A stretch of 39,462 nucleotides of DNA, from NCBI GenBank assembly GCA_039932125.1, contig JBDTQP010000001.1, forward strand, positions 1 through 39,462. The letters run 5' to 3'. This document shows, piece by piece, positions 22,413-36,599 of the stretch. Numbering within the stretch: the stretch's first letter is position 1; every line of letters begins with the position of its first letter. The position numbers and the translations under genes were made by a program. The notes below the pieces were generated by a model. That model did no database searches, was not told the DNA's origin, and saw only the letters and a program-made list of their open reading frames with translations. Origin of the DNA: Gemmatimonadota bacterium. GTDB lineage: Bacteria; Gemmatimonadota; Gemmatimonadetes; Gemmatimonadales; GWC2-71-9.

Positions 22413-22478
22413 GGCTCCAAGTTCCGCCCGGTCGAACCCTGAGGCAAGGGCAATGGCTCGTCACCCCGAGGTCTTTTG

Positions 22479-23459: not shown

Positions 23460-23462
23460 GGA

Positions 23463-23486: not shown

Positions 23487-23496
23487 CCCATCCCGG

Positions 23497-23943
23497 CTAT
23501 TTGATCATAAACTCCTGGCTTCCCGCGACCCGTCCGTTCAGCATCACCTCAACCCGGTACTTACCCATGGGCCAGGCGCTGGGCTTGGTAATGTGAAATT
23601 CGGTGACGGCATCGCTCATGGGCGAAATTGAGCGCGAGGTCGAGTCTACGACCTGGCCGTCCTCGAAGCTCCAGCGTGCGACCAGGGTGGCAGGACCTGT
23701 CCCGCTCGTCGCAACCGATGCGTAAATCGTGTCTCTTCGCGCAAACTCGGTCCCGGAGCCGGTCACCCGCATATCAGAACCAACCGAGCGGCCGACGTCA
23801 ACCGAGTTCACCTGGACTGCCTGGGCCTGGCTCATCGTGGTTGAATCCGCGGCCGGTACATTGGCCTCTTTTTTGTTGCATCCAGCGGTCGCGATAACCG
23901 CAATGGCCAGCATACTCATCACATTTCCTGTGGTGTTTCTCAT
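23497..23943 (-). CDS. Small lipoprotein of unknown function
   Basis: Signal peptide with lipobox IATAGC. ATG 23943 is preceded by GGAGG. The mature part is beta-rich, with no motif I recognise. Confidence 0.6.
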   Translation of the reverse strand: MRNTTGNVMSMLAIAVIATAGCNKKEANVPAADSTTMSQAQAVQVNSVDVGRSVGSDMRVTGSGTEFARRDTIYASVATSGTGPATLVARWSFEDGQVVDSTSRSISPMSDAVTEFHITKPSAWPMGKYRVEVMLNGRVAGSQEFMIK

Positions 23944-24012
23944 CAAATTCCTCCAGTGGAGCGTAACGGTGGTCGGTTCACGGGTCAGAGTCGTCTCGCA
24001 CCTCCTGCCGCC

Positions 24013-24267
24013 TCAGTCCGGGATGTTCAGGACCTGGCCCGGATGAATGAGGTCGGGATTGCTGATCGTCTTTCGGTTCGCCTCATAAATGCGCGGCCAG
24101 AGGCTCGCATCGCCGAGCAGGTGCCTGGCAATTTTTGAAAGGCTGTCGCCTTTGACGACCGTGTATGTTCGCGCCTGCGAAGGTGCGCCGGGAGTATCCG
24201 GTGCGGTCGAGCTGGAACCTGACTGGACATCAGAGAAATCCGCTTTTGGCCTGGTGAAGTCCGACAT
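24013..24267 (-). CDS. LysM domain protein
   Basis: 84 aa. The C-terminal YTVVKGDSLSKIARHLLGD...YEANRKTISNPDLIHPGQVLNIP is a canonical LysM fold signature. No signal peptide. Confidence 0.75.
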   Translation of the reverse strand: MSDFTRPKADFSDVQSGSSSTAPDTPGAPSQARTYTVVKGDSLSKIARHLLGDASLWPRIYEANRKTISNPDLIHPGQVLNIPD

Positions 24268-24451
24268 TCGGAGCCTTTCTTCCGGCAGGATTCGGTTGAA
24301 ATACCTGAGATTATTTTTCGATTCTGGACCGCTGAAGCTATCGCTGGGTGCTGGACCACCCTATTGTTGGGTATTCGGCAGCCGGGCACAGTGATGGGGC
24401 TCACCCATCATTGCCTTCCAACGACATCGGCCTCTTTTCCAGGGAAGCGCG

Positions 24452-25192
24452 TTGATTTCAGCCAACCGGTTCTACCCGGCACTGTTTTCTGTGTTAATCC
24501 TTCTGCTCGGAGTCACGCAGCGGGTGGAGGCCCAGGGGTGCGCTCCAGCGATGGGCAGCAGCCGTATCAATGTGCTCAGCACCAGCGAGAAAGCCGCAGG
24601 CTGGCGGCTTCTTTTTGATGGTGAATCAACGAAGGGATGGCGGGGCTATAGGAAGACGGCCGCACCCGCCGGCTGGAGAGTGGTGGATGGCGCACTCACG
24701 AGGGTCGCGGAAGCTGGTGACCTGGTCACCGAGGAGGAGTTTGGAAACTTCGAGCTCTCGCTTGAGTGGAAAATCATAACCGGCGGAAACAGTGGGGTGC
24801 TATATCGGGTTAGCGAGGCGGCCGATGCGAGCTACGAAACCGGTCCGGAAATGCAGGTGCTCGATGATGCGAACCATCCGGACGGGCAATCTCGCGCGAC
24901 TGCGGCCGGATCAGCATTCGGCCTTTATCCGGCACCAGCCGGCGTCGTGCGTCCGGCGGGACAATGGAACTCGGTCCGGATCGTCGTCACTGGAAACTCA
25001 GTCGAGCACTGGCTCAACGACGTGAAGGTCGTCAGCTATCAGTTGGGCAGTCCCGAATGGTCCGCCAGAGTAGCGGCCAGCAAGTTCCATCAGTGGCCGG
25101 GATACGGGCGGGCCACCCGAGGATACATCGCCCTGCAGGACCACGAAGCACGGGTATCCTTCCGAAACATCAAGATCCGGGTGCTCCCATGA
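24452..25192 (+). CDS. Secreted DUF1080 (3-keto-disaccharide hydrolase family) protein
   Basis: Sec signal ([19 protein letters not shown]). Family landmarks: [51 protein letters not shown] and [17 protein letters not shown]. Confidence 0.8.
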
Positions 25193-26388
25193 GCGGCATT
25201 CGCCTCAGACTCTCCACCATGATGTTCCTCCAGTACTTCATCTGGGGAGTCTGGTTCGTCACCATGGGGACGTACCTTCTGCAGACGCTCAAATTCACCG
25301 GCCAGCAGGTCGGGCTGGCGTACGGAGCAACCGCCATCGCCGCACTGGTCTCGCCGTTCTTTATCGGGATTGTGGCCGATCGCTTCTTCGCTTCGGAGAA
25401 GCTGCTTGCGGGGCTTCACCTGGCCGGGGGCGTCGCGATGTGGTTTCTCTCCACCCGCACGACGTTCGGGTCTTTCTATCCGGTCCTGATTCTCTACGCG
25501 CTCTGTTACATGCCCACGTTGTCACTTACCAATTCCGTTGCGTTTCACCATGTCGAAGATCCCGGCAAGGATTTCCCGCTGATCCGGGTACTCGGCACGA
25601 TCGGCTGGATCGCTGCCGGTATTCTCGTGGGCAAGGTGCTCCATGCCGATGCGCTCGCGACGCCGATGCGGGTTGCGGCCGGAGCATCCATCGTCATGGG
25701 GATGTTCTCGTTTGTCCTCCCGCACACGCCGCCCCGGTCCGCTGGAGCTCCGTTCAGTGTTCGCGATGCGCTGGGCCTTGATGCCCTGCAGCTCCTCCGC
25801 GACCGGTCGTTTCTCATCTTCGTGATCGGATCGTTTCTCCTCTGCGTGCCGCTTCAGTTTTACTACAGCTTCGCCAATGCCTTCCTGAACGAGATCAGGG
25901 CTCCGGACCCCGCGTTCATCCAGACATTCGGCCAGATGTCGGAGATCGCCTTCATGCTGGCGCTGCCGTTCCTGCTTCGGCGTTACGGGATAAAGGTGAT
26001 CATGCTGGCCGGCATGCTGGCGTGGTCCCTTCGCTACTTCGCGTTTGGATACGGGAATAGCGGCACCGGAATGTGGCTCATCTATCTTGGCATCATCCTG
26101 CACGGCATCTGTTACGACTTTTTTTTCGTGAGCGGGCAGATCTACACCGACCAGCGGGCCGGCCCCCGTATTCGCGCCGCCGCCCAGGGTTTCCTCAACT
26201 TCGTCACCAATGGTCTCGGCTATTTCGCAGGCGCCATTATCTCGGGACGCGTGGTGGAAGCGAATACACTGGGTGAGGGTGTGCACGACTGGCGGCAGAT
26301 CTGGATCGTGCCCGCCATAGGGGCGGCCGTCATTTTCCTGATCTTCGCGGTTCTGTTCCGCCCAAGGGCGGTAGCGCAGGGGAGCTGA
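25189..26388 (+). CDS. MFS permease of the nucleoside:H+ symporter (NupG/XapB/YegT-like) family
   Basis: The N-terminus [33 protein letters not shown]...IVADRF parallels NupG as recalled from memory, with about 12 TM helices. ATG 25189 overlaps the DUF1080 TGA (ATGA). The longer ORF-track start at 24964 is rejected. Confidence 0.85.
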
Positions 26389-26459
26389 TGATGCCGGCTG
26401 GGTCTCGTTTACAGGGGCACTGAGAACATGCGCAATCACAATGCTGCACGAGGTCGCTC

Positions 26460-28079
26460 GTGATCCTGGAGGCACTGTTGCTCCTCGCGATGACAGGCGG
26501 GCCGGATGATCCGCCTGACATCTCGATCATTCCACGCCCGGTGAGTGTCAGCGCCGCGACGGGTGATTTTCTGCTGACGCCCCTCACGGTCATCTGGACC
26601 GATTCGGCGTCTCAGGGTCTCGGGCGGCAGCTCTCGGATTATCTCCGGCCCGCCACCGGCTATCCGTTCGATGTCCGAGTGGGCCCCCCGACCGGCAGCG
26701 CGATTGTGCTCGAGCGGGACAGCTCGCTCCGGCAGCTGGGGCCCGAAGGGTATCGTCTCGCGGTCCAGGACAACCGGGTGACCATCACCGCTCCGGAAGA
26801 CGCGGGCATATTCTACGGCCTCCAGAGTCTCCGCCAGCTGCTCCCGCCGGCGATTTTCCGGAGCGCCCCCGTCATGGGAGTAGCCTGGATCGCGCCCGCC
26901 GTGTTGATCGAAGATTATCCACGATTCGCCTGGCGGGGCGCGCACCTCGATGTCTGCCGGCATTTCATGCCCAAGGAGTTCGTCAAGAAATACATCGATC
27001 TCCTGGCGCTCCAGAAACTCAACTCCTTTCACTGGCACCTGACCGAGGACCAGGGATGGAGAATCGAGATCAAACGATATCCACGGCTGACGCAGGTAGG
27101 CGCCTGGCGGAAGCAGACGCTGGTCGGCCGGGCCACCGAGGACCAGAGCCGCTGGGTCTTCGATGGCCAGCCGCATGGCGGCTTCTACACCCAGGATGAC
27201 ATCCGGGAAATCGTCGCGTACGCCAGGGACCGATATATCAATATCGTCCCCGAGATCGAGATGCCGGGGCATTCCCAGGCCGCCATCGCGGCCTATCCAG
27301 AGCTGGGTGTCACCGGCGACACCGTCGATGTCTGGACCTCCTGGGGCGTCACGGCGACCATCATGAATGTCGAAGAGAGCACCATCACCTTCATGCAGAA
27401 TGTGCTGTCGGAGGTGATGGAGCTTTTCCCCGGGCCATTCATTCACATCGGCGGCGACGAGGCACTGAAGCGGCAGTGGCAGACCAACGCACGCGTGCAG
27501 CAGCGGATGCGCGAACTGCATATCAAGGATGAAGACGCGTTACAGAGCTGGTTTATCCATCGCATGGATACTTTCCTGAACGCTCACGGGCGTAGACTGG
27601 TCGGCTGGGATGAGATCCTGCAGGGCGGACTGGCCCCAAACGCGACGGTCATGTCATGGCGGGGCGTGAGCGGAGGAATCACCGCGGCACGGGCGGGGCA
27701 CGACGTCGTCATGGCACCTGGGAGTCACACCTATCTCGACCACTATCAGTCTCGCGACCGGTCGAGCGAACCACTGGCAATCGGGGGCTTCACGCCTCTC
27801 GATACCGTCTATGCTTTCGATCCCATGCCTCCGACGCTCGAGCCCGAGTTCCGCAAGCACATCCTGGGCGCCCAGGCCCAGGTCTGGACCGAATACATCA
27901 AGGATCCCAAGCAGGTCGAGTACATGGCGTTTCCCCGGATGATCGCGCTCGCCGAGGCGCTGTGGACGCCAGTCGACCGAAAAAACTTCCCCGATTTCCT
28001 GGTCCGTCTGAGACCGGAGCTGGAGCGCCTGGGCATCCTGGATGTAAATTATCGGCCGCTCGATCGGCCGCTTCCGTAA
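26460..28079 (+). CDS. GH20 beta-N-acetylhexosaminidase
   Basis: HLDVCRHF, NSFHWHLTEDQGWRIEIKRYP, the catalytic pair in HIGGDE, and VMSWRG. GTG start with only a weak N-terminal hydrophobic stretch. Confidence 0.9.
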   Translation: MILEALLLLAMTGGPDDPPDISIIPRPVSVSAATGDFLLTPLTVIWTDSASQGLGRQLSDYLRPATGYPFDVRVGPPTGSAIVLERDSSLRQLGPEGYRLAVQDNRVTITAPEDAGIFYGLQSLRQLLPPAIFRSAPVMGVAWIAPAVLIEDYPRFAWRGAHLDVCRHFMPKEFVKKYIDLLALQKLNSFHWHLTEDQGWRIEIKRYPRLTQVGAWRKQTLVGRATEDQSRWVFDGQPHGGFYTQDDIREIVAYARDRYINIVPEIEMPGHSQAAIAAYPELGVTGDTVDVWTSWGVTATIMNVEESTITFMQNVLSEVMELFPGPFIHIGGDEALKRQWQTNARVQQRMRELHIKDEDALQSWFIHRMDTFLNAHGRRLVGWDEILQGGLAPNATVMSWRGVSGGITAARAGHDVVMAPGSHTYLDHYQSRDRSSEPLAIGGFTPLDTVYAFDPMPPTLEPEFRKHILGAQAQVWTEYIKDPKQVEYMAFPRMIALAEALWTPVDRKNFPDFLVRLRPELERLGILDVNYRPLDRPLP

Positions 28080-28116
28080 AGGGCAGCTGGGCGTCAATGA
28101 TGGGCGACGGGTGGAT

Positions 28117-29373
28117 CTAGCGCCTGGTCGTGCCCGGCTGCCACGTGCCCCGCGCCACCGCAGGCACAAAACTCTCAAGTCCACGAGGCGGAAACTCAAC
28201 CGTCTTTCCGGTCTCAGCCGCCATGTATCCCGCCATGAGAATTCTAACCACTTCGTAGCCATCCTCGAACGTCAGGCGGGGCTCCTCTTTCCCCAGGAAG
28301 GCGCGGACAAAATGCCGGTTCTCGGCCTCGTAGCCGTAGGCGGCGGCTTCATTGGGAACCACGGGCATCAATCCCATCTCGGCATTCTGTTTCTCCACCA
28401 GGTCCTCGCCTGATTTTCCTTTTACCTCTCTACTGAAGAATAAATTGAGCTCGCTTTGCAGCGAGTTCCAGCTCATCGAATACTCCGGCCCCAGGAGCTC
28501 GGCTGAGAGCCGGAGCCCGGCCCCCACATAACTCCACGACGTGCTCGCCTCCGCCATGAGGGGCGTGCCGTTCTCATCTTCCAACTCGAGCGAGAGGCTG
28601 GCAAAATCCTCCGAGGGATGTTTCGTGTAGTCAATCTCTTTCCCCATGGTCTTACTCAGCTTCTTCGCGTACTCGGGCCGGCTCCACTTCAGGCTCGCGA
28701 TCCGCGCGCTCAAGCGCACCGGCCGAATCGACGAACGGGGAGCCCCGGGCGGTGTCAGCAGAAAGCGCACGACCTCGACCGAGTGGCACATCATGTCGTT
28801 GAGCACGCCGCCACCCTGGAGGTTCCCCTGCCAGAACCACGGCATGTGTGGGCCACTGTGCTCCTCGGCGGCTCGCGCCAGGTAAGGCCTCCCGGTCAGG
28901 GCGGCGCCACGAGCCCAGATGATGTCCCGGCCCCGGGTGACCGCGGGAGCGAAGAGCTGATTCTCCAGGTAGCCGGTCTTGAGTCCGACACGCTTGACGA
29001 GGGCCATGACCCGCTTGGCCTCGGCGACGTTTCTGGCGAGCGGCTTCTCGCTCGCGAGGCCTCGAAGCTCGCCGCGACCGCGCTCGATGGTGTCGACGAT
29101 CTCTTCCACATTCTCGATGCGGGCCTGATTGGGACCGCAGAGCCAGATCGCGTTTATGGCCGGATCGGCGACCATGTCCGCAATGGAGGCGTAGGCCCTG
29201 GTCTTGCCGAGGTCGAGGCCGCGGGCAAATGCGGCAGTGTCAGCCGCACGGCGAGCGTTCGGGCTCCAGACGCCCAGCACATCGGCATCGCGGACCGCGG
29301 TGAAAGACTGCATATGAAAACGGGTGATGAATCCGGAGCCGATGAAACCGACGCCCAGCCGCTGTTCGGACAT
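28117..29373 (-). CDS. Gfo/Idh/MocA-family NAD(P)-dependent oxidoreductase, cytoplasmic
   Basis: N-terminal Rossmann GVGFIGSGFITRFH and an EKPLA motif. 418 aa with no signal peptide. Confidence 0.85.
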   Translation of the reverse strand: MSEQRLGVGFIGSGFITRFHMQSFTAVRDADVLGVWSPNARRAADTAAFARGLDLGKTRAYASIADMVADPAINAIWLCGPNQARIENVEEIVDTIERGRGELRGLASEKPLARNVAEAKRVMALVKRVGLKTGYLENQLFAPAVTRGRDIIWARGAALTGRPYLARAAEEHSGPHMPWFWQGNLQGGGVLNDMMCHSVEVVRFLLTPPGAPRSSIRPVRLSARIASLKWSRPEYAKKLSKTMGKEIDYTKHPSEDFASLSLELEDENGTPLMAEASTSWSYVGAGLRLSAELLGPEYSMSWNSLQSELNLFFSREVKGKSGEDLVEKQNAEMGLMPVVPNEAAAYGYEAENRHFVRAFLGKEEPRLTFEDGYEVVRILMAGYMAAETGKTVEFPPRGLESFVPAVARGTWQPGTTRR

Positions 29374-29424
29374 AGTGTCTCGTGAAGAAGTCAGAGAGTG
29401 TCTGCCGGGACTCGCCAGGCAAAC

Positions 29425-30030
29425 TCAGGAATAGCTGACGCCCAGCTTGGCGAGCGCTTCGGGAGGACACCCATTCCATTCGGTCACGAAGGTGTTGCCT
29501 TTGTACTGAAGGTCTTCGACACCCAACTTGCTGGAGAAGAAGGCGGACGCCGTCATGTCCCGGAACCGGCTGAAGAAGGCGACGCCATGGCTCAGTTCCG
29601 GCCGGGCTTTCTCCGGCCAGGCGAGATCGTCGGCCAGGCTGGCCCGCTCAGCGGGAGTTGAGTCTACGAAGGCCTTGCCGAACCGGTGATGACATTCGTT
29701 GTCGATCCAGGCAAGTCCGCCACGAACAGCTACCTGGCTATCCGGTCGATCGTTCAACATGAAATCCATGAACTCGGGCGCGCCCGATTCCGTGGCGCTG
29801 CCGGATCGCTCGTCCCTCGGAATGATAAGATCCGCCAGCGCCGAGACCGTTGCATACTCGTGCGCCGTGAAAAATGCAGGCTCGTAGGGGAGACCAGTTT
29901 CAGCGGCGGTCTTCCGGACCCCGGTCACGAAGTCCCGCGCGCGAACGATCGACTCCGGCTTCCAATTGAGTGCCGTCAGCGGCGTCAGCGCCATCAACCC
30001 GAGGATTTCGCGCCTGGTGGGCTCAGTCAT
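29425..30030 (-). CDS. Tat-signal small subunit of a FAD-dehydrogenase complex (gluconate 2-dehydrogenase subunit 3 family)
   Basis: Start refined to ATG 30028-30030 (MTEPTRREILGLMAL, twin-arginine motif). Has the F..HEY..V.ALADLIIP signature shared with the second small subunit at 35449-36009. Confidence 0.75.
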   Translation of the reverse strand: MTEPTRREILGLMALTPLTALNWKPESIVRARDFVTGVRKTAAETGLPYEPAFFTAHEYATVSALADLIIPRDERSGSATESGAPEFMDFMLNDRPDSQVAVRGGLAWIDNECHHRFGKAFVDSTPAERASLADDLAWPEKARPELSHGVAFFSRFRDMTASAFFSSKLGVEDLQYKGNTFVTEWNGCPPEALAKLGVSYS

Positions 30031-30116
30031 GTCCGATACTCCTGGTTGTTGTTCACGCTCACGCTGGGATACGCACTCTGCGACATGCGTTGCAGCGAGT
30101 CTGGTGAATCCATGAG

Positions 30117-31805
30117 CTAGATACTTCCGGCTTTGCGCTGGGAGACGATGTACTCGCTCGTCCGCATCGCAAGCGCGAGAATGGTCCACGTGGGGTTCTT
30201 GTCTGCCTGGGAGACAAAAGGTCCGCCATCGGTAACGAAGAGATTCTTCACCTCGTGAGCCTGGCAGTACTTGTTGAGCACCGACGATCCCGGGTTGTTA
30301 CCCATGCGAACCACACCGAGCTCGTGAATGATGCTCCCGCCATTCGCGATGCCATAGCCATGATCCGCGGACGGCATCGGGTCGAACACCTTGCCACCCA
30401 TTTCGGCGATCAGTGACCGGAACGTCTCCTGCATGTGCTTCACCTGCTTATACTCGTAGTCGCTCCACTTCCAGTGAAAACGGAGCACTGGTATGCCCCA
30501 GCGATCCACCACATTGGAGTCAATCTCGCAGTAGGAGTTTTCGTTGGGGATCATTTCGCCGCGGCCGGAGAAGCCGACGGTCGCGCCGTAGTATTTGCGG
30601 TATTGATTCTTGAGCGAAGCCCCGTACCCGCCGCCCTCAGGGTATTCCTGGATGCCACCCATAAAGCCGTACGCCGGCGGATACAATCCGCCCCACACCT
30701 CTATGTGATAGCCCCGCGGAAAATCGAGCGTCTTGTTGTCTACCCACCACGGCATGTAGACGTGGTTGCCGCCGGTGCCATCCTCGTTGTGGGGGACATG
30801 GTCCATCATTGCGGGTATGAAACCGGCGACATCGGTGCCGGTCGTATCCGTGAGGTACTTCCCGACCACCCCGCTCCCATTGGCCAGGCCCTGCGGAAAA
30901 CGCGAGGAGCGTGAGTTGAGCAGCAGGCGAGCTGTCTCACATGCGCTGGCCGCCAGCACGACGATTTTCGCGTCCACATGGATGTCTTCTCCGGTCGCCT
31001 TGTCGATATAGGAGACACCGGTGGCGAGCCCCCGTGCATCGGTGGTGACCTCTCGCGCCATGGCGCCCGTGACCAGGGTCAGTTTCCCGGTTGCCCTGGC
31101 TGGTGGGATCAGCACATTGGTCGAAGAAAAATTGGAGTTGGTCTTGCAGCCGCGGCCGCACTGGCCGCAATAATGGCAAGCGGGCCGGCCATTATGCGGC
31201 TGGGTGAGAATCGAAAGCCGGCCGGGAATGCAGGTCACCTTGAGTTTGTCGGCCGCTTTCTTGACCAGGAGCTCGTAGCAGCGCGGCCTCGGTGCGGGCA
31301 GAAAATGCCCATCGGGCTCGTTGAAGATCCCTTCCTTGCTCCCATAGATCCCGATGAGGTCATCGATGCGATCGTAATAGGGCTTGATCTCATCGTAGGT
31401 GATCGGCCAGTCGTCCCCCAGTCCATCGAGGCTCTTCCGGCGAAAGTCATTGGGGCCAAACCGGAGCGAAATACGTCCCCAGTGGTTTGTCCGCCCCCCC
31501 AGCATGCGCACACGGAACCAGTCGAACTTCTCACCCGGGGCCCGAGTATAGGGCTCGCCGGGGAGCGACCATCCACCGAGTCCGGCGTCGAACTCGCCGA
31601 AGTTCTGGGCCGGGGTTGACGCGCCACGGCGCGGCGATTCATACGGCCACATGAGCATCGTGGAATCCGTGGTATTGTCCCACATCTGGCCGGCTTCGAG
31701 CATGATGACGTCGGCACCAGCTTCCGTGAGTACCTTGGCCGCCATGCCGCCGCCGGCGCCGGAACCAACAATACAGACGTCATAGGTCTTTGAACGTGCG
31801 CGCAT
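30117..31805 (-). CDS. GMC-family FAD-dependent oxidoreductase, catalytic subunit (copy 1)
   Basis: N-terminal FAD fold YDVCIVGSGAGGGMAAKVL, Cys cluster CHYCGQCGRGC (31146-31178) and C-terminal GMC His region IIHELGVVRMG. No signal peptide. Confidence 0.85.
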   Translation of the reverse strand: MRARSKTYDVCIVGSGAGGGMAAKVLTEAGADVIMLEAGQMWDNTTDSTMLMWPYESPRRGASTPAQNFGEFDAGLGGWSLPGEPYTRAPGEKFDWFRVRMLGGRTNHWGRISLRFGPNDFRRKSLDGLGDDWPITYDEIKPYYDRIDDLIGIYGSKEGIFNEPDGHFLPAPRPRCYELLVKKAADKLKVTCIPGRLSILTQPHNGRPACHYCGQCGRGCKTNSNFSSTNVLIPPARATGKLTLVTGAMAREVTTDARGLATGVSYIDKATGEDIHVDAKIVVLAASACETARLLLNSRSSRFPQGLANGSGVVGKYLTDTTGTDVAGFIPAMMDHVPHNEDGTGGNHVYMPWWVDNKTLDFPRGYHIEVWGGLYPPAYGFMGGIQEYPEGGGYGASLKNQYRKYYGATVGFSGRGEMIPNENSYCEIDSNVVDRWGIPVLRFHWKWSDYEYKQVKHMQETFRSLIAEMGGKVFDPMPSADHGYGIANGGSIIHELGVVRMGNNPGSSVLNKYCQAHEVKNLFVTDGGPFVSQADKNPTWTILALAMRTSEYIVSQRKAGSI

Positions 31806-31879
31806 CTGGGTCCTTGAAGTGTGCTAATGAGTCAGGCTGGCTTCGATTGCCGATTATCCTTCATCTTCGCCCCGCCGCG

Positions 31880-32740
31880 CTACCTCTCACAAATCTCCAC
31901 TGCCTCCCGGAGCGAGGTCAACGGTTCCTTTGTCGGCATGAACTCGTGCGCCAGGTAGCCGGTAAAACCGGTTGCCGAGATGGCGCGGGCAACGGCGCTG
32001 TAGTTGAGCTCCTGGGTGCCGTCGATTTCGTGGCGACCGGGAACTCCGCCGGTGTGGTAGTGACCGATGAAGGCGGCGTTGTCCCGGATGGTGCGGATCA
32101 CGTCACCTTCCATGATCTGCATGTGGTAAATATCGTAGAGGAGCTTGATGCGAGGCGAGTCGATCGCCTTGAGCACAGCGACGCCGAATGCGGTGTGGTC
32201 TCCCATGTAATCGGCATGATCAACCTTGCTGTTGAGCAGCTCGACGCAGATCGTAACTCCCAGCTCTTCTGCTGCGGGTGCGATCTGGCGGAGGCCGGCA
32301 ACGCAGTTGCCGATTCCTTCCGCATCGCTCCGGCCTCGCCGGTTCCCGAACATGGTTATGACGTTCGGCACTCCCGCGCGCGCGGCCCTGGGAAGCGTCG
32401 CTTCGAGTTCTTTCAGTAACATTGGGTGATTCGCCCGATCGTTGAACCCCGTCGCGATAAAGTCGTCACGCCTGGCCGGATAGCCCATGGAGCAGACGAG
32501 CCCCGCGTCGGCAACGACAGGCCATTCATCCGGTTGAAGCAAGTCGATCGCGGCGAGGCCCATCGCCTTGGCCCGCCGGGCGAACTCCGGCAGAGGTATG
32601 GACTCGAAAGGCCACCGCGAAACCGACTGCCTGAATCCTGGCGGCGCAATCGAATGGGCTCCGGCTGATGGGTGGCCGAGCCGTGAGCCAGCGAGTGCGG
32701 CGGCGGAGGCCAGCATCATGTCCCGTCGTGTCATGGTCAT
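31880..32740 (-). CDS. Tat-exported TIM-barrel enzyme, hydroxypyruvate-isomerase-like (xylose isomerase-like fold)
   Basis: Start refined to ATG 32740 (MTMTRRDMMLASAAALAG, twin-arginine). CVELLN and LLYDIYHMQIMEGD...GHYHTGGVPGRHEIDGTQELNY parallel the Hyi family. Confidence 0.8.
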   Translation of the reverse strand: MTMTRRDMMLASAAALAGSRLGHPSAGAHSIAPPGFRQSVSRWPFESIPLPEFARRAKAMGLAAIDLLQPDEWPVVADAGLVCSMGYPARRDDFIATGFNDRANHPMLLKELEATLPRAARAGVPNVITMFGNRRGRSDAEGIGNCVAGLRQIAPAAEELGVTICVELLNSKVDHADYMGDHTAFGVAVLKAIDSPRIKLLYDIYHMQIMEGDVIRTIRDNAAFIGHYHTGGVPGRHEIDGTQELNYSAVARAISATGFTGYLAHEFMPTKEPLTSLREAVEICER

Positions 32741-32795
32741 GCTGCCATCGCGCGGGGCGGCGAATCGGCGATCAGACTGGGCGGAAACACGCGGT

Positions 32796-33638
32796 TCAGA
32801 ACTCCAGCCGCCGGAGATAGCGATAACTCGCGCTGATCGAGTCAAATGGCGAAGCAGGCTCGTCATGCTCCACGAAATAATGCTTGATGCCGGCAGCTTC
32901 ACTCTGGGCAAAGATCCGCCGGAAGTCGATGTCGCCTGCGCCGACGTCCACCATGGGTTGTGGCGCGCCGCGCTTCAGGTCCTTGACATGAACCATCGGA
33001 AACCGGCCCGGGTACTGGCGGAAGTAGGTGAACGGATCACCACCCGCGAGCGTGAGCCAGTAGAGATCCATTTCCAGCTTGACCATGGCGGGGTCGGTGC
33101 GCTGCAGGAGCATGTCAAAGGGGACTTTGCCATCGATGGGAACGAACTCGAAATTGTGATTGTGGTACGCGAAGGTGAGGCCTGCCCGCCGGGTTTCTTC
33201 TCCTGCCCGGTTGAACTTGTCGGCGATCCGTTTCCAGTCATCCATGGTTCGGCGGGCTTCTTCAGGCGTCCAGGCAATCACCACGTATTCGTGCCCGATC
33301 GACCGGGCACGGTCCAGCACGCGCGACCAGCCGTCTCCCAGCTCCTCGAATGCCATGTGACCGGAAGGGGCGCTCAGTCCCAGTCCATCGAGGATGGTCC
33401 GGATCTGTTCCGGCGAGCGATCGAAGTAGCCGGCGAACTCCACCTCTTTATACCCGATCTCGGCGACACGCGCGAGCGTGCCTTCGAGATCGCGCGCCAT
33501 CTCCGCTCGTACGGTATACAGCTGCACGCCAATCCGTTCGAGGGTGCGCGGGTACCTGGTGGGCCAGCTCCATCGGGGGAGCATTGTGGCGGCGAGAGCG
33601 CCGGTTCCGGTCCGCACAAAGGTTCGTCGTGAGGTCAT
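32796..33638 (-). CDS. Tat-exported sugar phosphate isomerase/epimerase-like TIM-barrel enzyme
   Basis: Start refined to ATG 33638 (MTSRRTFVRTGTGALAATML, twin-arginine). IGVQLYTVR, FAYHNHNFEF, LEMDLYW and VHVKD are typical of the AP-endonuclease-2/xylose-isomerase-like family. Confidence 0.8.
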   Translation of the reverse strand: MTSRRTFVRTGTGALAATMLPRWSWPTRYPRTLERIGVQLYTVRAEMARDLEGTLARVAEIGYKEVEFAGYFDRSPEQIRTILDGLGLSAPSGHMAFEELGDGWSRVLDRARSIGHEYVVIAWTPEEARRTMDDWKRIADKFNRAGEETRRAGLTFAYHNHNFEFVPIDGKVPFDMLLQRTDPAMVKLEMDLYWLTLAGGDPFTYFRQYPGRFPMVHVKDLKRGAPQPMVDVGAGDIDFRRIFAQSEAAGIKHYFVEHDEPASPFDSISASYRYLRRLEF

Positions 33639-33708
33639 GAGTCCTCGATCACAGGGCTGGGTACGCTGTCGTGAATCCCTCTCGCCCACGGGATTCCGTG
33701 TAGACTAA

Positions 33709-35394
33709 CTACAGCTCGTTCCGTTTCATCTGGTCGACCGAATAGGCGACCGCGCGAGCGGTGAGTGCCATATAAGTTATTGACGGGTTCTGATTGGCCG
33801 AGGAGGTCATGCAGGCGCCATCGGTCACGAACAGATTTTTCACGTCGTGTGCCTGGTTGTGGCTGTTCAGGACCGAGGTGCGAGGGTTCCGGCCCATCCG
33901 TGCAGTCCCCATCTCATGGATCGTGAGTCCCGGCGGGTTGTCATCCACGTGAGCGACCACGTCCTTGACGCCGGTGGCTTCGAGCATCTCGGCCGCCGTG
34001 ACCGACATATCCTGGAGCAACTTCCGCTCGTTGTCGCTCCACTCACAGTGAATTCGCAAAGCCGGTACGCCCCAGGCGTCCACCTGGTGTTCATCAATCT
34101 CTACATAATTGGTGGGGCGCGGAAGGCACTCACCGAATCCGTAGAAGCTGAAGCCCCAGCCGCCCGGGGTCCGCAGGGCCGTCTTGAAATCTTTGCCGAA
34201 GCCGGGCATATCGTTGCCCCGTCCCCAGCCATCCTGCCAGCCGCCTCCCTGGAAGGCATAGCCCCGAAGGAAATCAGGATGCTGCCGGTTCACATTTTGG
34301 AAACGTGGAATGTAGATCCCGTTCGGGCGACGGCCAGCGGAGTTTGCCTCCCTGATATCCGGCAACCGGCCGTGGGCACCACCACCCATGCAGTGGTCCA
34401 TCAGGTTTCGGCCCAGTTCACCGCTCGAGTTTGCCAGTCCGTCCGGGAAGCGTGGTGTTCTGGAATTGAGCAGAATCCTGGTGGATTCCAGCGCGGACGC
34501 ACAGAGGAAAACCACCCGGGCGGAGAAGACCGTCTCCTCTTTTGTCCGGGCGTCAATGACACGCACGCCGCTGGCGCGTCCCCTGGCCTCATCGTAAAGG
34601 ACGCTGTGCACGACGCTCCACGGGCGTAGCGTCAGCCGGCCAGTAGCCGCGGCGGCGGGAAGGGTGACTCCAAGGCTGTTGAAATAGGAGAAGGTGATGC
34701 ACCCACGCTCGCACGGACCGCAGTAGTGACACGGCGCGCGCCCGCCGTGGGCCTGAGTGAGGATGGCACAACGGCCGATCGTCAGTACTCGCTCACCGTC
34801 GAATTGTCCCGCGAGCCGCTCGCGAACCGCTTTCTCCGCACAGTTGAGAGCCATGGGCGGGAGGAACTGGCCGTCCGGAAGCTGGGGAAGACCGAGCCGC
34901 TCACCGCTGATGCCGATGAACTGCTCGACGTAATCGTACCATGGAGCGATGTCCGCGTACCGAATGGGCCAGTCCACGCCGAAACCATCTCGCGAGTTTG
35001 CTTCGAAATCGAGATCACTCCAGCGATAGACCTGGCGTCCCCACATGATGGACCGCCCGCCAACCTGCCGGCCTCGAATCCAGTGAAAAGGCTGCGTCTT
35101 GTCGAACGTGTACGGATTGTCCCGGTCGTTCACAAAGAACTTGCCACTCCACTCATCGCAGGCGTAGCAGTGCTTCTGAATGAACTGATCCCGTTCCAAT
35201 GCGATGCGGTCGCCGAACCCCTGGTAGTGCAGCTGCCAGGGCTGCACGTGCTCGACAAAGTCGGTTCCGGGATCGATCGGACCGCCGGCTTCGAGGACCA
35301 GCGTTCGCAGGCCTTTTTCCGTCAGCTCTTTCGCAGCCCAGCCGCCGCTGATTCCGGAACCGACGACGATCGCGTCAAATGAGTCATTTCGCAT
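33709..35394 (-). CDS. GMC-family FAD-dependent oxidoreductase, catalytic subunit (copy 2)
   Basis: FDAIVVGSGISGGWAAKEL, Cys cluster CHYCGPCERGC (34699-34731) and TIHEMGTARMG. No signal peptide. Paralogous to 30117-31805. Confidence 0.85.
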   Translation of the reverse strand: MRNDSFDAIVVGSGISGGWAAKELTEKGLRTLVLEAGGPIDPGTDFVEHVQPWQLHYQGFGDRIALERDQFIQKHCYACDEWSGKFFVNDRDNPYTFDKTQPFHWIRGRQVGGRSIMWGRQVYRWSDLDFEANSRDGFGVDWPIRYADIAPWYDYVEQFIGISGERLGLPQLPDGQFLPPMALNCAEKAVRERLAGQFDGERVLTIGRCAILTQAHGGRAPCHYCGPCERGCITFSYFNSLGVTLPAAAATGRLTLRPWSVVHSVLYDEARGRASGVRVIDARTKEETVFSARVVFLCASALESTRILLNSRTPRFPDGLANSSGELGRNLMDHCMGGGAHGRLPDIREANSAGRRPNGIYIPRFQNVNRQHPDFLRGYAFQGGGWQDGWGRGNDMPGFGKDFKTALRTPGGWGFSFYGFGECLPRPTNYVEIDEHQVDAWGVPALRIHCEWSDNERKLLQDMSVTAAEMLEATGVKDVVAHVDDNPPGLTIHEMGTARMGRNPRTSVLNSHNQAHDVKNLFVTDGACMTSSANQNPSITYMALTARAVAYSVDQMKRNEL

Positions 35395-35448
35395 TGGACA
35401 TCAGACTCCCAGCGAACTGGAGTGGGGAACGGTGGCGTGGTGCAGACC

Positions 35449-36009
35449 TCATGGCCGCGAACAGGGATCGTAGCGTCCGGGGATGACCTGGTAGTGCAGC
35501 TCCCTGGTCATGCCGATCTCAGAGGTGTAGTAGCCGTACAGGGTCAGGCCCTTGATGCGGTGAAAGAAGTTGTTGTCGAGTTTACCGTTTTGCGCCCGGA
35601 GGAGGGAAACCTCATCGTCCAGAATCTGAAGCAGCCTGGTCTGATCGGCTTCGCTGCCGCTCACAAAATCCCGGCCGGAGTCCTGGTTGCTTCTGGCATC
35701 CAGGTCGGCGAGGCCCGCCATGAAACGGTCCCGGTCTGGCGCCGTGTACCACTCTCCCACAATGATGGCGATAAACCCGGGAACCCCGGCTTCGAGTGCG
35801 CCAGGCGTATCGGTTGCCGGGATGATCAGGTCTGTCACCCGGCCCACCGTATCGAACTGATGCGGAGTGAATGGCCCTCGACCATTTCCCGGCGGCATGC
35901 GAGCATTGATCGCCTGGCCTCTGGCGAAAAGCTGGTCCGCTGTCATCGAGCTCAGGCCAGCACTTCCTACCAGCGATCCCAGCAATTGCACGAGATCTCG
36001 ACGGTTCAT
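35449..36009 (-). CDS. Tat-signal small subunit (gluconate 2-dehydrogenase subunit 3 family), copy 2
   Basis: MNRRDLVQLLGSLVGSAGL (twin-arginine) and F..HQF..V..VTDLIIP. Confidence 0.75.
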   Translation of the reverse strand: MNRRDLVQLLGSLVGSAGLSSMTADQLFARGQAINARMPPGNGRGPFTPHQFDTVGRVTDLIIPATDTPGALEAGVPGFIAIIVGEWYTAPDRDRFMAGLADLDARSNQDSGRDFVSGSEADQTRLLQILDDEVSLLRAQNGKLDNNFFHRIKGLTLYGYYTSEIGMTRELHYQVIPGRYDPCSRP

Positions 36010-36025
36010 CTACCCTCGCGAAAGT

Positions 36026-36049
36026 GGCGATGTTTCATGCAACATCGCC
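36026..36049 (-). terminator. Perfect 9-bp stem / 6-nt loop hairpin between dinB-like gene and the sugar-oxidation operon (terminator or regulatory hairpin)
   Basis: GGCGATGTT (36026-36034) pairs with AACATCGCC (36041-36049). On the transcribed minus strand it is followed by ACTTTCGCGAGGGTAG and then the ATG of the small subunit. Confidence 0.4.
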
Positions 36050-36113
36050 CATCCGGGAGCCGGACGCCAGATGGTCGCGATGAACCACCGTCATCATCGA
36101 TTCCCTCCGCCGT

Positions 36114-36599
36114 TCAGGAAGGCTTACTCTGGCGGACGGCCGCTGGACTTCCGCGCACAAATCCGATGTAATCGGTGGGAGCCGGGGCCACCCCGCCGCG
36201 CCGCATCGCCAGGGCGATCTGCCCCCGGTGGTAAGCTCCGTGCAACGCCACATGCAGCAGGATATCCTGGATGGTAGATCGGAAATCTCTACCCGCCGAG
36301 TTGCGATAGTCCACCAGACGCTGGTCATCGTCCCCGGCGAGTCTCCCGATGAAATCGACAAATCCCCGGTGATTCTCCATCGCCAGGGCGGCGCACTGGT
36401 CGAGCGTGAGGGACGGCCATACGGCGACCGACGCCTTCTCGTCCCGTAGCCGGGCAAGCCAGACATGCTCGGCGCCGAGGATGTGCGCGAACAGCTCGAG
36501 GCAGGCGGGTTCGATGGTATCCGAGCCGCGTAACACAGCCAGGACTTCCAGGTCGGCCCACTCCGTGTGGGCAAAGAGTTTCAGGTATTGTTGAATCAT
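36114..36599 (-). CDS. DinB-family (DinB_2-like) metal-dependent protein
   Basis: 161 aa, four-helix-bundle type pattern with FAHTEWAD, HILGAEHVW and LLHVALHGAYHRGQI (His triad). Confidence 0.8.
   Translation of the reverse strand: MIQQYLKLFAHTEWADLEVLAVLRGSDTIEPACLELFAHILGAEHVWLARLRDEKASVAVWPSLTLDQCAALAMENHRGFVDFIGRLAGDDDQRLVDYRNSAGRDFRSTIQDILLHVALHGAYHRGQIALAMRRGGVAPAPTDYIGFVRGSPAAVRQSKPS

Follow-up and report, generated by a model that had tools for sequence, protein, structure and literature searches.

A putative 3-keto-glycoside cleavage cluster from a soil or rhizosphere Gemmatimonadales bacterium

The window (the whole stretch of DNA analysed, 39,462 nucleotides, obtained from rhizosphere and soil metagenomes) contains a cluster of ten genes by which a Gemmatimonadales bacterium of soil and rhizosphere probably cuts glycosidic bonds via the 3-keto route, i.e., by oxidation, elimination, hydration, and reduction; we give this reading a probability of about 0.7. 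The cluster is most likely a local version of the pathway known from Agrobacterium, Caulobacter, and Bacteroides, and not a new type of system. The original prediction had regarded this combination of families as uncharacterised as a unit, which is incorrect: the Agrobacterium operon coding for GlycDH, a Tat subunit, OGE, HYD, and a Gfo enzyme has been described and partly reconstituted (Bitter et al., 2023, PMC10628242), and the Caulobacter lacABC genes have been tied to DUF1080, TIM barrel, and Gfo genes by fitness data (Liu, 2021, PMC8121099; Price, 2022, PMC9007349). Compared with the known pathway, the local features are a second clade of GMC enzymes, a four-cysteine motif, a hydroxypyruvate-isomerase-like TIM barrel exported by Tat, and a link to a GH20 hexosaminidase and an NHS-family permease that recurs elsewhere; the cluster also contains neither an AtHYD homologue nor a cytochrome c. 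The core of the prediction, a periplasmic oxidation, beta-elimination, hydration, and reduction started by a flavoprotein, holds up by homology and fits every testable sequence feature, namely the 47% identity of GMC1 to GlycDH, the AtOGE and BT1 residues of TIM1, a BT2-type DUF1080 protein, a cytoplasmic Gfo enzyme, and a permease 49% identical to that of a Xanthomonas G3DH/OGE/HYD cluster.

Organization of the cluster

The open reading frames of all ten genes were checked at their coordinates and placed in Pfam families (Table 1). These analyses, together with motif checks, bore out the gene families, the signal-peptide pattern, and the ATGA overlap at 25189-25192, in which the stop of the DUF1080 gene and the start of the MFS gene are translationally coupled. 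The plus- and minus-strand gene sets converge, with 37 nt between their stops, which rules out a common promoter; nor is co-regulation of the two sets to be assumed. Two separable modules are joined in the cluster: module A consists of sm1-GMC1-TIM1(-TIM2), and module B of GMC2-sm2-Gfo with the DUF1080 protein, the NHS permease, and often GH20. In related loci, each module occurs apart from the other. It is doubtful that the DinB-family gene belongs to the unit; among related loci, it was syntenic with the cluster in L021 only. Within the region, sigma-70-like matches occurred solely upstream of this gene, in a number not above that of shuffled sequences. A search for RNA runs returned none.

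Table 1. Genes of the cluster and the adjoining DinB-family gene.
Gene or product	Coordinates	Strand	Family and N-terminal features
DUF1080 protein	24452..25192	+	PF06439 (3-keto-disaccharide hydrolase), E 6.5e-54, full model; Sec-type signal peptide
MFS permease, nucleoside:H+ symporter (NHS) family	25189..26388	+	PF03825, E 6.6e-125
GH20 beta-N-acetylhexosaminidase	26460..28079	+	PF00728, E 3e-123; N-terminal domain PF02838
Gfo/Idh/MocA NAD(P)-dependent oxidoreductase	28117..29373	-	PF01408, PF02894, PF22725; no signal peptide
sm2, small subunit 2 (gluconate 2-dehydrogenase subunit 3 family)	29425..30030	-	PF13618, E 3e-30; TRREIL
GMC2, FAD + Fe-S catalytic subunit	30117..31805	-	GMC_oxred_N/C
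TIM2, hydroxypyruvate-isomerase-like TIM barrel	31880..32740	-	PF01261; MTMTRRDMM
TIM1, xylose-isomerase-like TIM barrel	32796..33638	-	PF01261; MTSRRTFV
GMC1, FAD + Fe-S catalytic subunit	33709..35394	-	GlycDH homology
sm1, small subunit 1	35449..36009	-	PF13618, E 4.9e-34; MNRRDLV
DinB-family gene	36114..36599	-	PF05163, E 1.5e-13; 105 nt upstream of sm1, same strand

GMC dehydrogenases and their putative export partners

GMC1 is probably an orthologue of the glycoside 3-dehydrogenase GlycDH/G3DH. It showed 46.6% identity over 564 residues (full length; E 7e-163, 467 bits) to the characterised GlycDH of Rhizobium sp. GIN611, in a comparison with the sequence obtained by OCR from Supplementary Table 6 of Bitter et al. 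GMC1 is also 49-50% identical to GMC enzymes of Xanthomonas and Ketogulonicigenium, which are themselves 73-74% identical to GlycDH and are encoded beside orthologues of AtOGE (57-60%) and AtHYD (71%). It contains the motif CHYCGPCERGC and conserves His493 and Asn536. GMC2 would represent a second clade of glycoside-3-dehydrogenase-like enzymes, sister to that of GMC1, and this function is proposed as a candidate. It is 40% identical to GMC1 and only 30% to GlycDH, and more similar to GMC enzymes of Hymenobacter (58%) and Pseudoalteromonas (47%); no characterised member of its clade was identified. GMC2 carries the motif CHYCGQCGRGC and conserves the His/Asn catalytic pair. The closest structures to GMC1 (BcGDH, E 1e-31) and GMC2 (BcGDH alpha, E 4e-44; FDH, E 2e-38) indicate that both belong to the Fe-S dehydrogenase-complex type, whereas oxidases had been proposed. 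Both enzymes depend on an electron acceptor, and the cluster has no gene for one.

Both GMC enzymes lack a signal peptide and start straight at the FAD-binding GxGxxG motif. The twin-arginine motif was found in 76/78 orthologues of sm1, 15/16 of sm2, 40/42 of TIM1, and 27/29 of TIM2, against a background rate of 21/82 in the regions upstream of GMC genes. Neither sm1 nor sm2 matched any PDB sequence. The distribution of export signals suggests that sm1 and sm2 act as hitch-hiker export partners of GMC1 and GMC2, respectively, so that the Tat system would carry each GMC enzyme across the membrane loaded with FAD and its Fe-S cluster, piggy-backed on its twin-arginine small subunit. Once in the periplasm, GMC1 and GMC2 would attack glycosides at the non-reducing-end sugar, oxidising its C3 hydroxyl, and pass the electrons to an acceptor for which the cluster has no gene.

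Proposed cleavage, hydration, uptake, and reduction

The two TIM barrels had been taken for a duplicated lyase/isomerase set, a view that did not survive comparison: TIM1 and TIM2 gave no similarity by BLAST and are assigned to unrelated subfamilies, with TIM1 as the only lyase homologue. TIM1, a Tat-exported protein, is a candidate 3-keto-beta-O-glycoside 1,2-lyase (beta-eliminase) of the AtOGE/BT2156 type. It is homologous to the 3-keto-beta-glycoside lyases AtOGE and BT1/AL1, with PDB matches to 8TCD/8TCS/8TCT (E 1e-31) and AtOGE (8BVK, E 1.5e-25). His134 and His189 of AtOGE are kept, and alignment to 8TCD/8TCS matched the metal-site and catalytic residues of BT1/AL1 (H-x-H, D..W, His, Glu) by residue type. 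For Tat-exported TIM2, the candidate functions are keto-sugar epimerase/isomerase or glycal hydratase. It matched the TIGR03234 and OtnI models weakly, and its PDB matches were 3NGF (E 2e-14) and YcjR (6WN6, E 6e-7). The Foldseek neighbours of its AlphaFold model (pLDDT 82) were 3NGF, 4OVX, YcjR, ketose 3-epimerases, and DgpB-C, and E167/D203/H229/E266 are invariant. TIM2 is 43-45% identical to a Tat "TIM barrel protein" whose gene immediately precedes that of the Xanthomonas G3DH, and a 76% identical homologue in Gemmatirosa does not adjoin a GMC gene.

On a rival reading, no glycosidic bond is cleaved. Each GMC/small-subunit pair might be a periplasmic respiratory dehydrogenase acting on free sugars, polyols, or sugar acids, such as gluconate 2-dehydrogenase, fructose dehydrogenase, or FAD-glucose dehydrogenase, and the TIM barrels might merely isomerise keto-sugars. 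The nearest solved structures (BcGDH and fructose dehydrogenase), the "gluconate 2-dehydrogenase subunit 3" Pfam family of the small subunits, and the likeness of TIM2 to ketose epimerases and hydroxypyruvate isomerase are in its favour, as are the many GMC1 loci with no lyase gene nearby (about half of the full-flank GMC1 loci had no partner family within 10 kb). We nevertheless consider it improbable: GMC1 is far nearer to GlycDH than to BcGDH/FDH (about 110 bits), the catalytic residues of 3-keto-glycoside lyases are kept in TIM1, linkage to DUF1080 recurs, and no c-type cytochrome gene was found anywhere in the 39 kb, although a cytochrome c subunit is a constant part of those complexes.

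The DUF1080 protein is a candidate periplasmic 3-keto-alpha-glycoside 1,2-lyase/2-hydroxy-3-keto-glycal hydratase of the BT2/AL2 type. The original prediction gave the family name, 3-keto-disaccharide hydrolase, whereas DUF1080 enzymes are nowadays described as lyase/hydratases. Its N-terminus, ending before QG, is Sec-like. Its PDB matches were 4JQT (E 3e-55) and 8TDA/8TDE (E 4e-36), and it is 39% identical to the DUF1080 protein encoded in the Pseudoalteromonas GMC operon. The sequence contains E-x-Q (PEMQ) and Q-x-H (LQDH) motifs that may correspond to Glu164/Gln166 and Gln273/His275 of BT2.

Under the 3-keto route, oxidation at C3 would acidify the C2 proton and allow 1,2-elimination of the aglycone or the remaining glycan, with TIM1, as a metal-dependent lyase of the AtOGE/BT1 type, acting on beta-linked substrates and the DUF1080 protein, as a BT2-type lyase, on alpha-linked ones. 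The resulting 2-hydroxy-3-keto-glycal would then be hydrated, probably by the DUF1080 protein and/or TIM2; since no AtHYD-type hydratase gene occurs in the cluster, this step is proposed by analogy with BT2. Several observations weigh against the route as a whole: the low identity of GMC2 to GlycDH, the distant relationships of the Gfo enzyme, the missing AtHYD-type hydratase and c-type cytochrome, the convergence of the two strands, the GMC1 loci without partner families, and the solitary TIM2 homologue of Gemmatirosa.

The MFS permease is the candidate importer of the keto-sugar or the keto-glycal. Its score of 405 bits falls short of the 446 bits that NCBIfam sets for nucleoside permeases, and it is 48-49% identical to a "nucleoside permease" whose gene, in the G3DH cluster of Xanthomonas sacchari, is flanked by the AtHYD-like gene and the Gfo gene. 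In the cytoplasm, the Gfo/Idh/MocA enzyme would reduce the keto-sugar to an ordinary hexose. Its candidate role as a 3-keto-sugar reductase is suggested by gene context and by the Gfo reductase of Agrobacterium; it contains the EKP and GGG..D...H motifs, but no characterised keto-sugar reductase is a close relative, and its PDB relatives are distant as well (KanD2, 6JW6, E 1e-15; levoglucosan dehydrogenase, 6A3F, E 6e-8). GH20, with the GGDE catalytic pair in its sequence, appears to be a conventional exo-glycosidase recurring with the cluster in this lineage and would remove beta-HexNAc caps that block or accompany the substrates. Its N-terminus (MILEALLLLAMTGG) is weakly signal-like, with an in-frame stop just upstream; a Sec signal is clear in its 65% identical counterpart in L009, an orthologue.

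The same chemistry might serve rhizosphere plant small-molecule glycosides (phenolic or flavonoid O-glycosides, possibly C-glycosides) instead of glycans or disaccharides, combining deglycosylation or detoxification of plant secondary metabolites with carbon scavenging from them. Compounds of this kind are what the nearest characterised relatives work on: GlycDH accepts phlorizin, puerarin, and nothofagin for oxidation, and the activity of AtOGE in cleaving 3-keto-phlorizin is 235 U/mg. The rhizosphere metagenome origin and the presence of DgpB-C among the structural neighbours of TIM2 are also consistent with this substrate range. It is nonetheless rather unlikely. AtOGE cleaves 3-keto-cellobiose too, so its family is not limited to aryl glycosides, and it does not cleave C-glycosides; none of the ten genes codes for a C-C-cleaving second subunit of the DgpC/CarC type; and the recurrent GH20, together with GH27 in L009, points to glycan-type substrates.

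Synteny in other genomes

Lack of synteny elsewhere had been named beforehand as grounds for rejecting the pathway; synteny was found in genome, metagenome, and proteobacterial loci. Across 160 related loci and annotated proteobacterial records, the families of the cluster recur as neighbours in different gene orders, which indicates a grouping beyond chance. The same gene kit, differently arranged, was found in Gemmatimonadota, Acidobacteriota, Xanthomonas, and Pseudoalteromonas. The Xanthomonas cluster has every family of the window, including the NHS permease and the Tat hydroxypyruvate-isomerase-like TIM barrel, and Pseudoalteromonas has a single operon (Gfo-TIM-MFS-DUF1080-GMC-small-TIM) that holds its GMC2 relative. 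Regarding module A, sm1 adjoined GMC1 in 78/80 genome loci, and TIM1 was the commonest neighbour of the pair (17/37 full-flank loci). For module B, GMC2 adjoined sm2 in all 27 metagenome loci with enough flank, with Gfo next after sm2 in 23 of them. The whole seven-gene minus-strand run was present in L002, L009, L011, and L037, and rearranged in L003.

These data also bear on whether two unrelated operons lie side by side in the window, the plus-strand DUF1080-MFS-GH20 genes serving HexNAc/chitobiose or nucleoside uptake and the minus-strand genes an independent G3DH pathway. The convergent strands, which preclude a shared promoter, the nucleoside:H+ symporter family of the permease, and the arrangement of GH20 after MFS, absent from all other loci compared, would agree with incidental adjacency. 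This is very improbable, however, given that at least 15 loci have the DUF1080-MFS pair as a neighbour of sm1-GMC1 or GMC2-sm2-Gfo, in three orientations (divergent, convergent, and same-strand, the last including the operons of L145 and L147), that an orthologous permease gene lies inside the Xanthomonas cluster, that the permease scores under the curated nucleoside threshold, and that about 10 loci have a GH20 orthologue after Gfo-DUF1080, all on one strand. The hint that GH20 belongs with the cluster, originally drawn from one adjacency, proved better founded: GH20 orthologues (52-67% identity) adjoin the GMC2 module in 13/80 metagenome loci, in several arrangements, and also in L009. The L009 locus carries a GH27 gene as well.

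Organization and export signals of the gene cluster

The ten genes of the cluster form two convergent sets whose stops lie 37 nt apart (table). The minus-strand set codes for two small subunits (sm1 and sm2), two GMC dehydrogenases (GMC1 and GMC2), two TIM barrel proteins (TIM1 and TIM2), and an oxidoreductase of the Gfo/Idh/MocA family (Gfo). A twin-arginine motif was kept in the orthologues of sm1 (76/78), sm2 (15/16), TIM1 (40/42), and TIM2 (27/29), the control giving 21/82, and the N-termini of both GMC proteins begin at the FAD-binding motif GxGxxG. The genes, families, layout, and signals described in the original prediction were borne out in every particular, including ORFs, Pfam assignments, the ATGA overlap, and the Tat motifs. 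Scanning 23300-36900 for promoters and terminators gave matches no more numerous than in shuffled sequences, and was uninformative on operon structure.

Genes of the cluster (minus-strand genes in transcription order) and other features of the window
Feature	Strand	Position	Family or match	Remarks
Whole cluster		24452-36009		Ten genes
DUF1080 protein	+	24452-25192	PF06439, E 6.5e-54, model positions 1-187 of 187	Sec-type signal
MFS permease, nucleoside:H+ symporter (NHS) family	+	25189-26388	PF03825, E 6.6e-125	ATG overlaps DUF1080 stop as ATGA
GH20 hexosaminidase	+	26460-28079	E 3e-123	GTG start
sm1	-	35449-36009	PF13618, E 5e-34	Twin-arginine motif at N-terminus
GMC1	-	33709-35394	PF00732 and PF05199	Signal peptide absent
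Cys-rich site of GMC1	-	34699-34731		Residues 222-232
TIM1	-	32796-33638	PF01261	Twin-arginine motif at N-terminus
TIM2	-	31880-32740	PF01261; hydroxypyruvate-isomerase-like (NCBIfam)	Twin-arginine motif at N-terminus
GMC2	-	30117-31805	PF00732 and PF05199	Signal peptide absent
Cys-rich site of GMC2	-	31144-31176
sm2	-	29425-30030	PF13618, E 3e-30	Twin-arginine motif at N-terminus
Gfo	-	28117-29373	Gfo/Idh/MocA	Signal peptide absent
Tryptophan operon		10583-17858
trpB		10583-11797
HEAT-repeat protein		11794-13515
HD/HD-GYP-type domain protein		13512-15002
trpA		14971-15786
GAF-domain methyl-accepting chemotaxis protein		15783-17858
Glycerate kinase (DUF4147/MOFRL) and D-2-hydroxyacid dehydrogenase		21105-23459		Divergent pair
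Gap ahead of DUF1080		23460-24451		About 1 kb
ORF in gap	-	23497-23946	No Pfam match
ORF in gap	-	24027-24404	No Pfam match
DinB-family gene	-	36114-36599		105 nt upstream of sm1
Response-regulator/HD-GYP gene		36865-37896		Divergent

Predicted functions of the encoded proteins

The best PDB matches of both GMC proteins were the Burkholderia cepacia glucose dehydrogenase (BcGDH; 6A2U) and the G. japonicus fructose dehydrogenase (FDH; 7W2J), and the C-terminal His/Asn catalytic pair (His493 and Asn536) was invariant in the GMC alignment. GMC1 showed 46.6% identity over 564 residues (E 7e-163) to GlycDH, the glycoside 3-dehydrogenase of Rhizobium sp. GIN611, a value slightly underestimated since the sequences of GlycDH and of the lyase AtOGE and hydratase AtHYD were obtained by OCR from Supplementary Table 6 of PMC10628242. 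GMC2 was 29.8% identical to GlycDH, and the two GMC proteins shared 40% identity. In sequence, a genuine glycoside 3-dehydrogenase is a far closer relative of GMC1 than BcGDH or FDH is; GMC1 would be an orthologue of the characterised enzyme, and C3 regioselectivity is predicted for it. GMC2 appears to belong to a second GMC clade, in which no characterised member was identified. Comparison of sm1 and sm2 with the PDB, solved gamma subunits included, gave no match up to E 1.

The nearest annotated relative of GMC2 (58% identity) is encoded, together with its own small subunit, on the Hymenobacter volaticus plasmid NZ_CP095068 (locus L081, 39065-58789). The surrounding genes are of the SusC/SusD polysaccharide utilisation type and include a GH92 alpha-mannosidase and LacI-type regulators, with no TIM or DUF1080 gene nearby. 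This polysaccharide-utilisation context hints at complex glycans as substrates of the GMC2 clade.

Both GMC proteins contain a Cys-rich site where BcGDH has its 3Fe-4S cluster. In GMC1, the invariant residues C222, C228, and C232 match this BcGDH site in the alignment, and C225 is a fourth Cys. The resulting four-Cys motif CxxCxxCxxxC was found in both window proteins, in nearly all orthologues from Gemmatimonadota and Acidobacteriota, and in the Hymenobacter enzyme, as against the three-Cys motif C-x5-C-x3-C of GlycDH and the Xanthomonas, Ketogulonicigenium, and Pseudoalteromonas enzymes; BcGDH has three Cys plus the adjacent Cys213. This last residue, which in BcGDH forms a disulphide bond to the small subunit, is replaced by His in the window proteins. 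As judged from the motif, the four-Cys site may hold a 4Fe-4S instead of a 3Fe-4S cluster.

No CxxCH haem-binding motif was present in any window ORF of at least 60 aa, and a coding-like ORF with this motif lay within 2.5 kb of the cluster in only 10/160 related loci. Hardly any of these 160 loci had a credible gene for a cytochrome c close to the GMC genes; the Xanthomonas cluster has one. A putative cytochrome ORF beside sm1 in L008, L118, and L148 was discarded, its translation being Ser/Arg-rich and implausible as a protein.

TIM1 matched structures 8TCD/8TCS/8TCT with E 1e-31 and AtOGE (8BVK) with E 1.5e-25, the coverage spanning residues 35-275 of 280, and was 27% identical to the AtOGE sequence (E 2e-27). 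The two histidines of AtOGE mutated in PMC10628242, His134 and His189, are kept in TIM1. Its segments YHNH, EMDLYW, MVHVKD, and FVEHD line up with their counterparts in 8BVK and 8TCD, and it contains the residue types of the 3-keto-glycoside lyases BT1/AL1 (His-x-His, Asp...Trp, His, and the catalytic Glu). TIM1 is a homologue of 3-keto-O-glycoside beta-eliminases over the whole barrel, and elimination activity is predicted for it.

TIM2 showed no BLAST similarity to TIM1. Its AlphaFold model (pLDDT 82) had several about equally close neighbours, namely hydroxypyruvate-isomerase-like proteins, the 3-keto-D-glucoside 4-epimerase YcjR, ketose 3-epimerases, and DgpB-C, and its E/D/H/E metal site was invariant. 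With neighbours mixing isomerases, epimerases, and DgpB-C, the modelled fold did not decide its function. DgpB-C is only a distant fold neighbour of the model, and none of the ten genes codes for the second subunit, a small beta subunit, of a C-glycoside deglycosidase of the DgpB-DgpC/CarB-CarC type. AtHYD is a 350-aa TIM barrel, and a search of the window by tblastn with three of its orthologues (71% to AtHYD) yielded no more than marginal cross-hits, which fell on TIM1 and TIM2 (E 1e-4 or weaker). Gemmatirosa kalamazoonensis was considered as a cultured model for the link between TIM2 and GMC genes, and was dropped when its TIM2 homologue (76% identity) was found to have no adjacent GMC gene.

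The DUF1080 protein, with a single PF06439 domain and a Sec-like N-terminus, matched the structures 8TDA/8TDE, of the type of the DUF1080 lyase/hydratases BT2/AL2, with E 4e-36. It is a homologue of BT2/AL2, the likeness being at the whole-sequence level, and lyase/hydratase activity is predicted for it. The permease falls in the Pfam NHS family and, with 405 bits against TIGR00889 (cut-off 446), is by sequence no equivalog of the nucleoside permeases NupG/XapB. Gfo contains both the Rossmann NAD-binding and the C-terminal catalytic domains; its best PDB relatives are distant (6JW6, E 1e-15), and it shares about 27% identity over about 110 N-terminal residues with its counterpart in the Xanthomonas sacchari cluster, used here in place of the Agrobacterium enzyme.

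The GH20 protein starts with a short uncharged hydrophobic N-terminus (MILEALLLLAMTGG), an in-frame TGA lying 12 codons upstream (26391-26500). Its orthologue in locus L009 (65% identity) has a clear Sec signal (MIRLPASACLAVLLAVPAGASA). The signal peptide of the window GH20 may be degraded, or the protein may be localised differently. In L009, GH20 is followed at 19533-20675 by an apparent GH27 alpha-galactosidase/alpha-N-acetylgalactosaminidase, recognised only from an N-terminal sequence motif.

In L002, L003, L009, L037, L080, and numerous loci among L086-L165, Gfo is directly followed by a DUF1080 gene of a second subtype, and often GH20 comes next on that strand. This subtype is 50-57% identical to the DUF1080 of the Xanthomonas cluster and only about 30% to that of the window. 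The window lacks this subtype and carries GH20 on the other strand, and therefore a local rearrangement with loss of one DUF1080 gene is suggested.

Linkage in related loci and comparison with described systems

Relatives of the module were numerous, at least 596 being confirmed in each collection scan. In genome loci centred on GMC1, sm1 and GMC1 were adjacent in 78/80 cases. The full seven-gene run was present in L002, L009, L011, and L037, and in a rearranged order in L003. Among the 37 GMC1 loci flanked on each side by 8 kb or more, TIM1-type genes were found in 17, TIM2-type genes in 12, DUF1080 in 11, and Gfo in 8, and about half of the full-flank loci had no partner family within 10 kb. 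The metagenome loci centred on GMC2 numbered 80, 27 of them with enough flank; in these 27, sm2 was the next gene in all and Gfo followed in 23, and X-type DUF1080 (12), P-type DUF1080 (6), the NHS permease (11), and GH20 (7) were also present. From the GMC1-centred genome loci GH20 had seemed unconserved, a view overturned by the GH20 orthologues (52-67% identity) found in several arrangements in 13/80 of the GMC2-centred loci. The position of the DUF1080-permease pair also varied: it was divergent and upstream of sm1-GMC1 in L018, L069, and L071, convergent after Gfo in L011, L097, L117, and others, and on the same strand as GMC2-sm2-Gfo in L145 and L147. Two modules can be distinguished, Module A (sm1-GMC1-TIM1, with or without TIM2) and Module B (GMC2-sm2-Gfo plus DUF1080, the permease, and often GH20). 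Since each also occurs alone and the pair takes varied positions, the window cluster is a fusion of the two.

The combination of families had been put forward as uncharacterised as a unit, a claim that does not hold, since an Agrobacterium operon and a Caulobacter lacABC/DUF1080 cluster have already been published. The Agrobacterium tumefaciens operon codes for GlycDH, a Tat subunit, OGE, HYD, and Gfo; AtOGE has been characterised, and 3-keto-phlorizin was converted to glucose in one pot with AtOGE, AtHYD, Gfo, and NADH (Bitter et al., 2023; PMC10628242). In Caulobacter, DUF1080, TIM, and Gfo genes lie in a cluster with lacABC, have fitness phenotypes in common with it, and are tied by fitness data to growth on lactose, salicin, and raffinose, and LacA-like and DUF1080 genes are co-located in several phyla (Liu, 2021, PMC8121099; Price, 2022, PMC9007349). 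For the TIM and DUF1080 families, lyase and hydratase activities have been assigned (Nasseri et al., bioRxiv 10.1101/2024.03.25.586180).

The window cluster shares with the Agrobacterium operon, compared through the orthologous clusters of Ketogulonicigenium, Xanthomonas, and Halomonas, a GMC protein with a Tat small subunit, a xylose-isomerase-like TIM lyase, a Gfo/Idh/MocA gene, and the overall logic of oxidation, elimination, hydration, and reduction. It differs in lacking an AtHYD homologue, in having a second GMC/small subunit pair of another clade, an extra Tat-exported hydroxypyruvate-isomerase-like TIM protein, DUF1080, the NHS permease, and GH20, in its four instead of three Cys, and in coming from a different phylum. 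The Caulobacter crescentus lacABC cluster, compared from published descriptions of lacABC and not from the LacA sequence, likewise combines a periplasmic FAD 3-dehydrogenase with signal-peptide DUF1080 proteins, a TIM barrel, and Gfo genes, and carries BT2156-59 homologues. However, LacABC is bound to the membrane and requires three components, whereas the window enzymes have two subunits and no cytochrome c. In Bacteroides thetaiotaomicron BT2156-2160 and Alistipes AL1-5, the homologues of TIM1 and DUF1080 are BT1/AL1 (3-keto-beta-glucoside 1,2-lyase) and BT2/AL2 (3-keto-alpha-glucoside lyase and glycal hydratase), with periplasmic lyases and one cytosolic oxidoreductase as in the window. Oxidation in those systems relies on a Gfo/Idh/MocA enzyme that is exported by Tat, holds its NAD tightly, and has no net outlet for electrons, whereas that of the window relies on an FAD/Fe-S GMC dehydrogenase, whose electrons must reach a respiratory acceptor. 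BcGDH and FDH resemble the window enzymes in their signal-less catalytic subunit, Tat hitch-hiker small subunit, and Fe-S site position, but a cytochrome c subunit with three haems also belongs to their complexes, their 3Fe-4S site is of the C-x5-C-x3-C type, and they oxidise free sugars, not glycosides at C3.

Two annotated but unstudied clusters from other phyla have a similar gene content. That of Xanthomonas sacchari (NZ_CP010410) has the same families except GH20: a GMC protein orthologous to GlycDH (50% to GMC1, 73% to GlycDH), an AtOGE orthologue, DUF1080, Gfo, a 'nucleoside permease' (49% to the window permease), and a Tat 'TIM barrel protein' (43-45% to TIM2). The Pseudoalteromonas shioyasakiensis operon (NZ_CP077771) reads Gfo-TIM-MFS-DUF1080-GMC-small-TIM, its GMC protein being 47% identical to GMC2 and its DUF1080 39% to that of the window. 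Unlike the window, both carry a cytoplasmic AtHYD-type TIM protein, one GMC/small subunit pair each, and no GH20, and the Xanthomonas cluster has a small cytochrome c as well as a LacI regulator. In the proteobacterial clusters, OGE, DUF1080, and the hydroxypyruvate-isomerase-like TIM proteins have signal peptides, the AtHYD-like TIM protein and Gfo have none, and a permease gene lies in between. Since the signal-peptide split is the same, the window follows the compartment logic of these clusters. What sets the window apart from the described clusters is the second GMC clade, TIM2, the lack of AtHYD and cytochrome c, the four-Cys motif, and the recurrent NHS permease and GH20. From these differences in gene content and sequence, the cluster would be a local version of the published pathway.

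By analogy with the published enzymology, each FAD/Fe-S GMC dehydrogenase would be exported by Tat together with its small subunit and would oxidise glycosides at C3 in the periplasm. Elimination at C1-C2 (1,2-elimination) would be carried out by TIM1 on beta-linked and by DUF1080 on alpha-linked substrates, and hydration of the glycal formed would probably fall to DUF1080 and/or TIM2. Uptake would go through the NHS-type permease, and Gfo would then carry out a reduction with NAD(P)H in the cytoplasm; GH20 would remove HexNAc caps. That the Gemmatimonadota/Acidobacteriota version constitutes a distinct, cytochrome-less form of this pathway, with four-Cys dehydrogenases, a new Module B specificity, an NHS keto-sugar transporter, and TIM2 replacing AtHYD, is a tentative reading to which we give about one chance in four. 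Under it, the two-subunit dehydrogenases would possibly hold [4Fe-4S] instead of [3Fe-4S], and Module B, in which the GMC2 clade is combined with cytoplasmic Gfo, DUF1080, the NHS permease, and GH20, could be specific for a new kind of substrate, for example glycosides that are alpha-linked or contain HexNAc. A 3-keto-sugar or keto-glycal could be what the NHS-family permease transports, no transporter of such a compound having been found described in the literature searched on the pathway. In the periplasm, the Tat-exported TIM2 could act as a new type of epimerase on 3-keto-glycosides or as a glycal hydratase replacing AtHYD.

If the assignment of the cluster to the 3-keto route is right, non-Koshland 3-keto glycoside cleavage, studied so far in Agrobacterium, Caulobacter, and gut Bacteroidota, would extend to Gemmatimonadota and Acidobacteriota, abundant and poorly cultivated soil phyla in which this module is clearly widespread. 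Some of the glycoside turnover in the rhizosphere would then send electrons directly to respiration, invisible to CAZyme-based annotation. The cluster does not overturn current understanding; it supplies, from sequence only, concrete candidates for the keto-sugar importer, the periplasmic AtHYD substitute, and the electron acceptor of the FAD-type pathway.

Genomic surroundings of the cluster

The genes outside the cluster are of the housekeeping type (pur, trp, pan, and fol genes, glycerate kinase, and 2-hydroxyacid dehydrogenase), and composition is uniform across the window. Its nearest relatives are Gemmatimonadales MAGs, with GMC1 77-79% identical, and its sequence is present in DNA runs from rhizosphere and soil metagenomes; a search for RNA runs found none.

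The gap ahead of DUF1080 contains only the two minus-strand ORFs listed in the table. No regulator gene was evident for either operon; the proteobacterial clusters carry LacI or AraC regulators. On the other side, the DinB-family gene lies on the same strand as sm1, and one close relative (L021) shows synteny of the response-regulator/HD-GYP gene with sm1-GMC1-TIM1.

The divergent pair of glycerate kinase and D-2-hydroxyacid dehydrogenase, located just upstream of the cluster, was considered as partners of TIM2 and rejected, TIM2 being Tat-exported. Since the pair is syntenic in no related locus, it is probably unrelated to TIM2. Further away, the tryptophan operon is interrupted between trpB and trpA by the HEAT-repeat and HD/HD-GYP-type genes, with overlapping starts and stops, and the chemotaxis protein gene follows directly after trpA, also overlapping.
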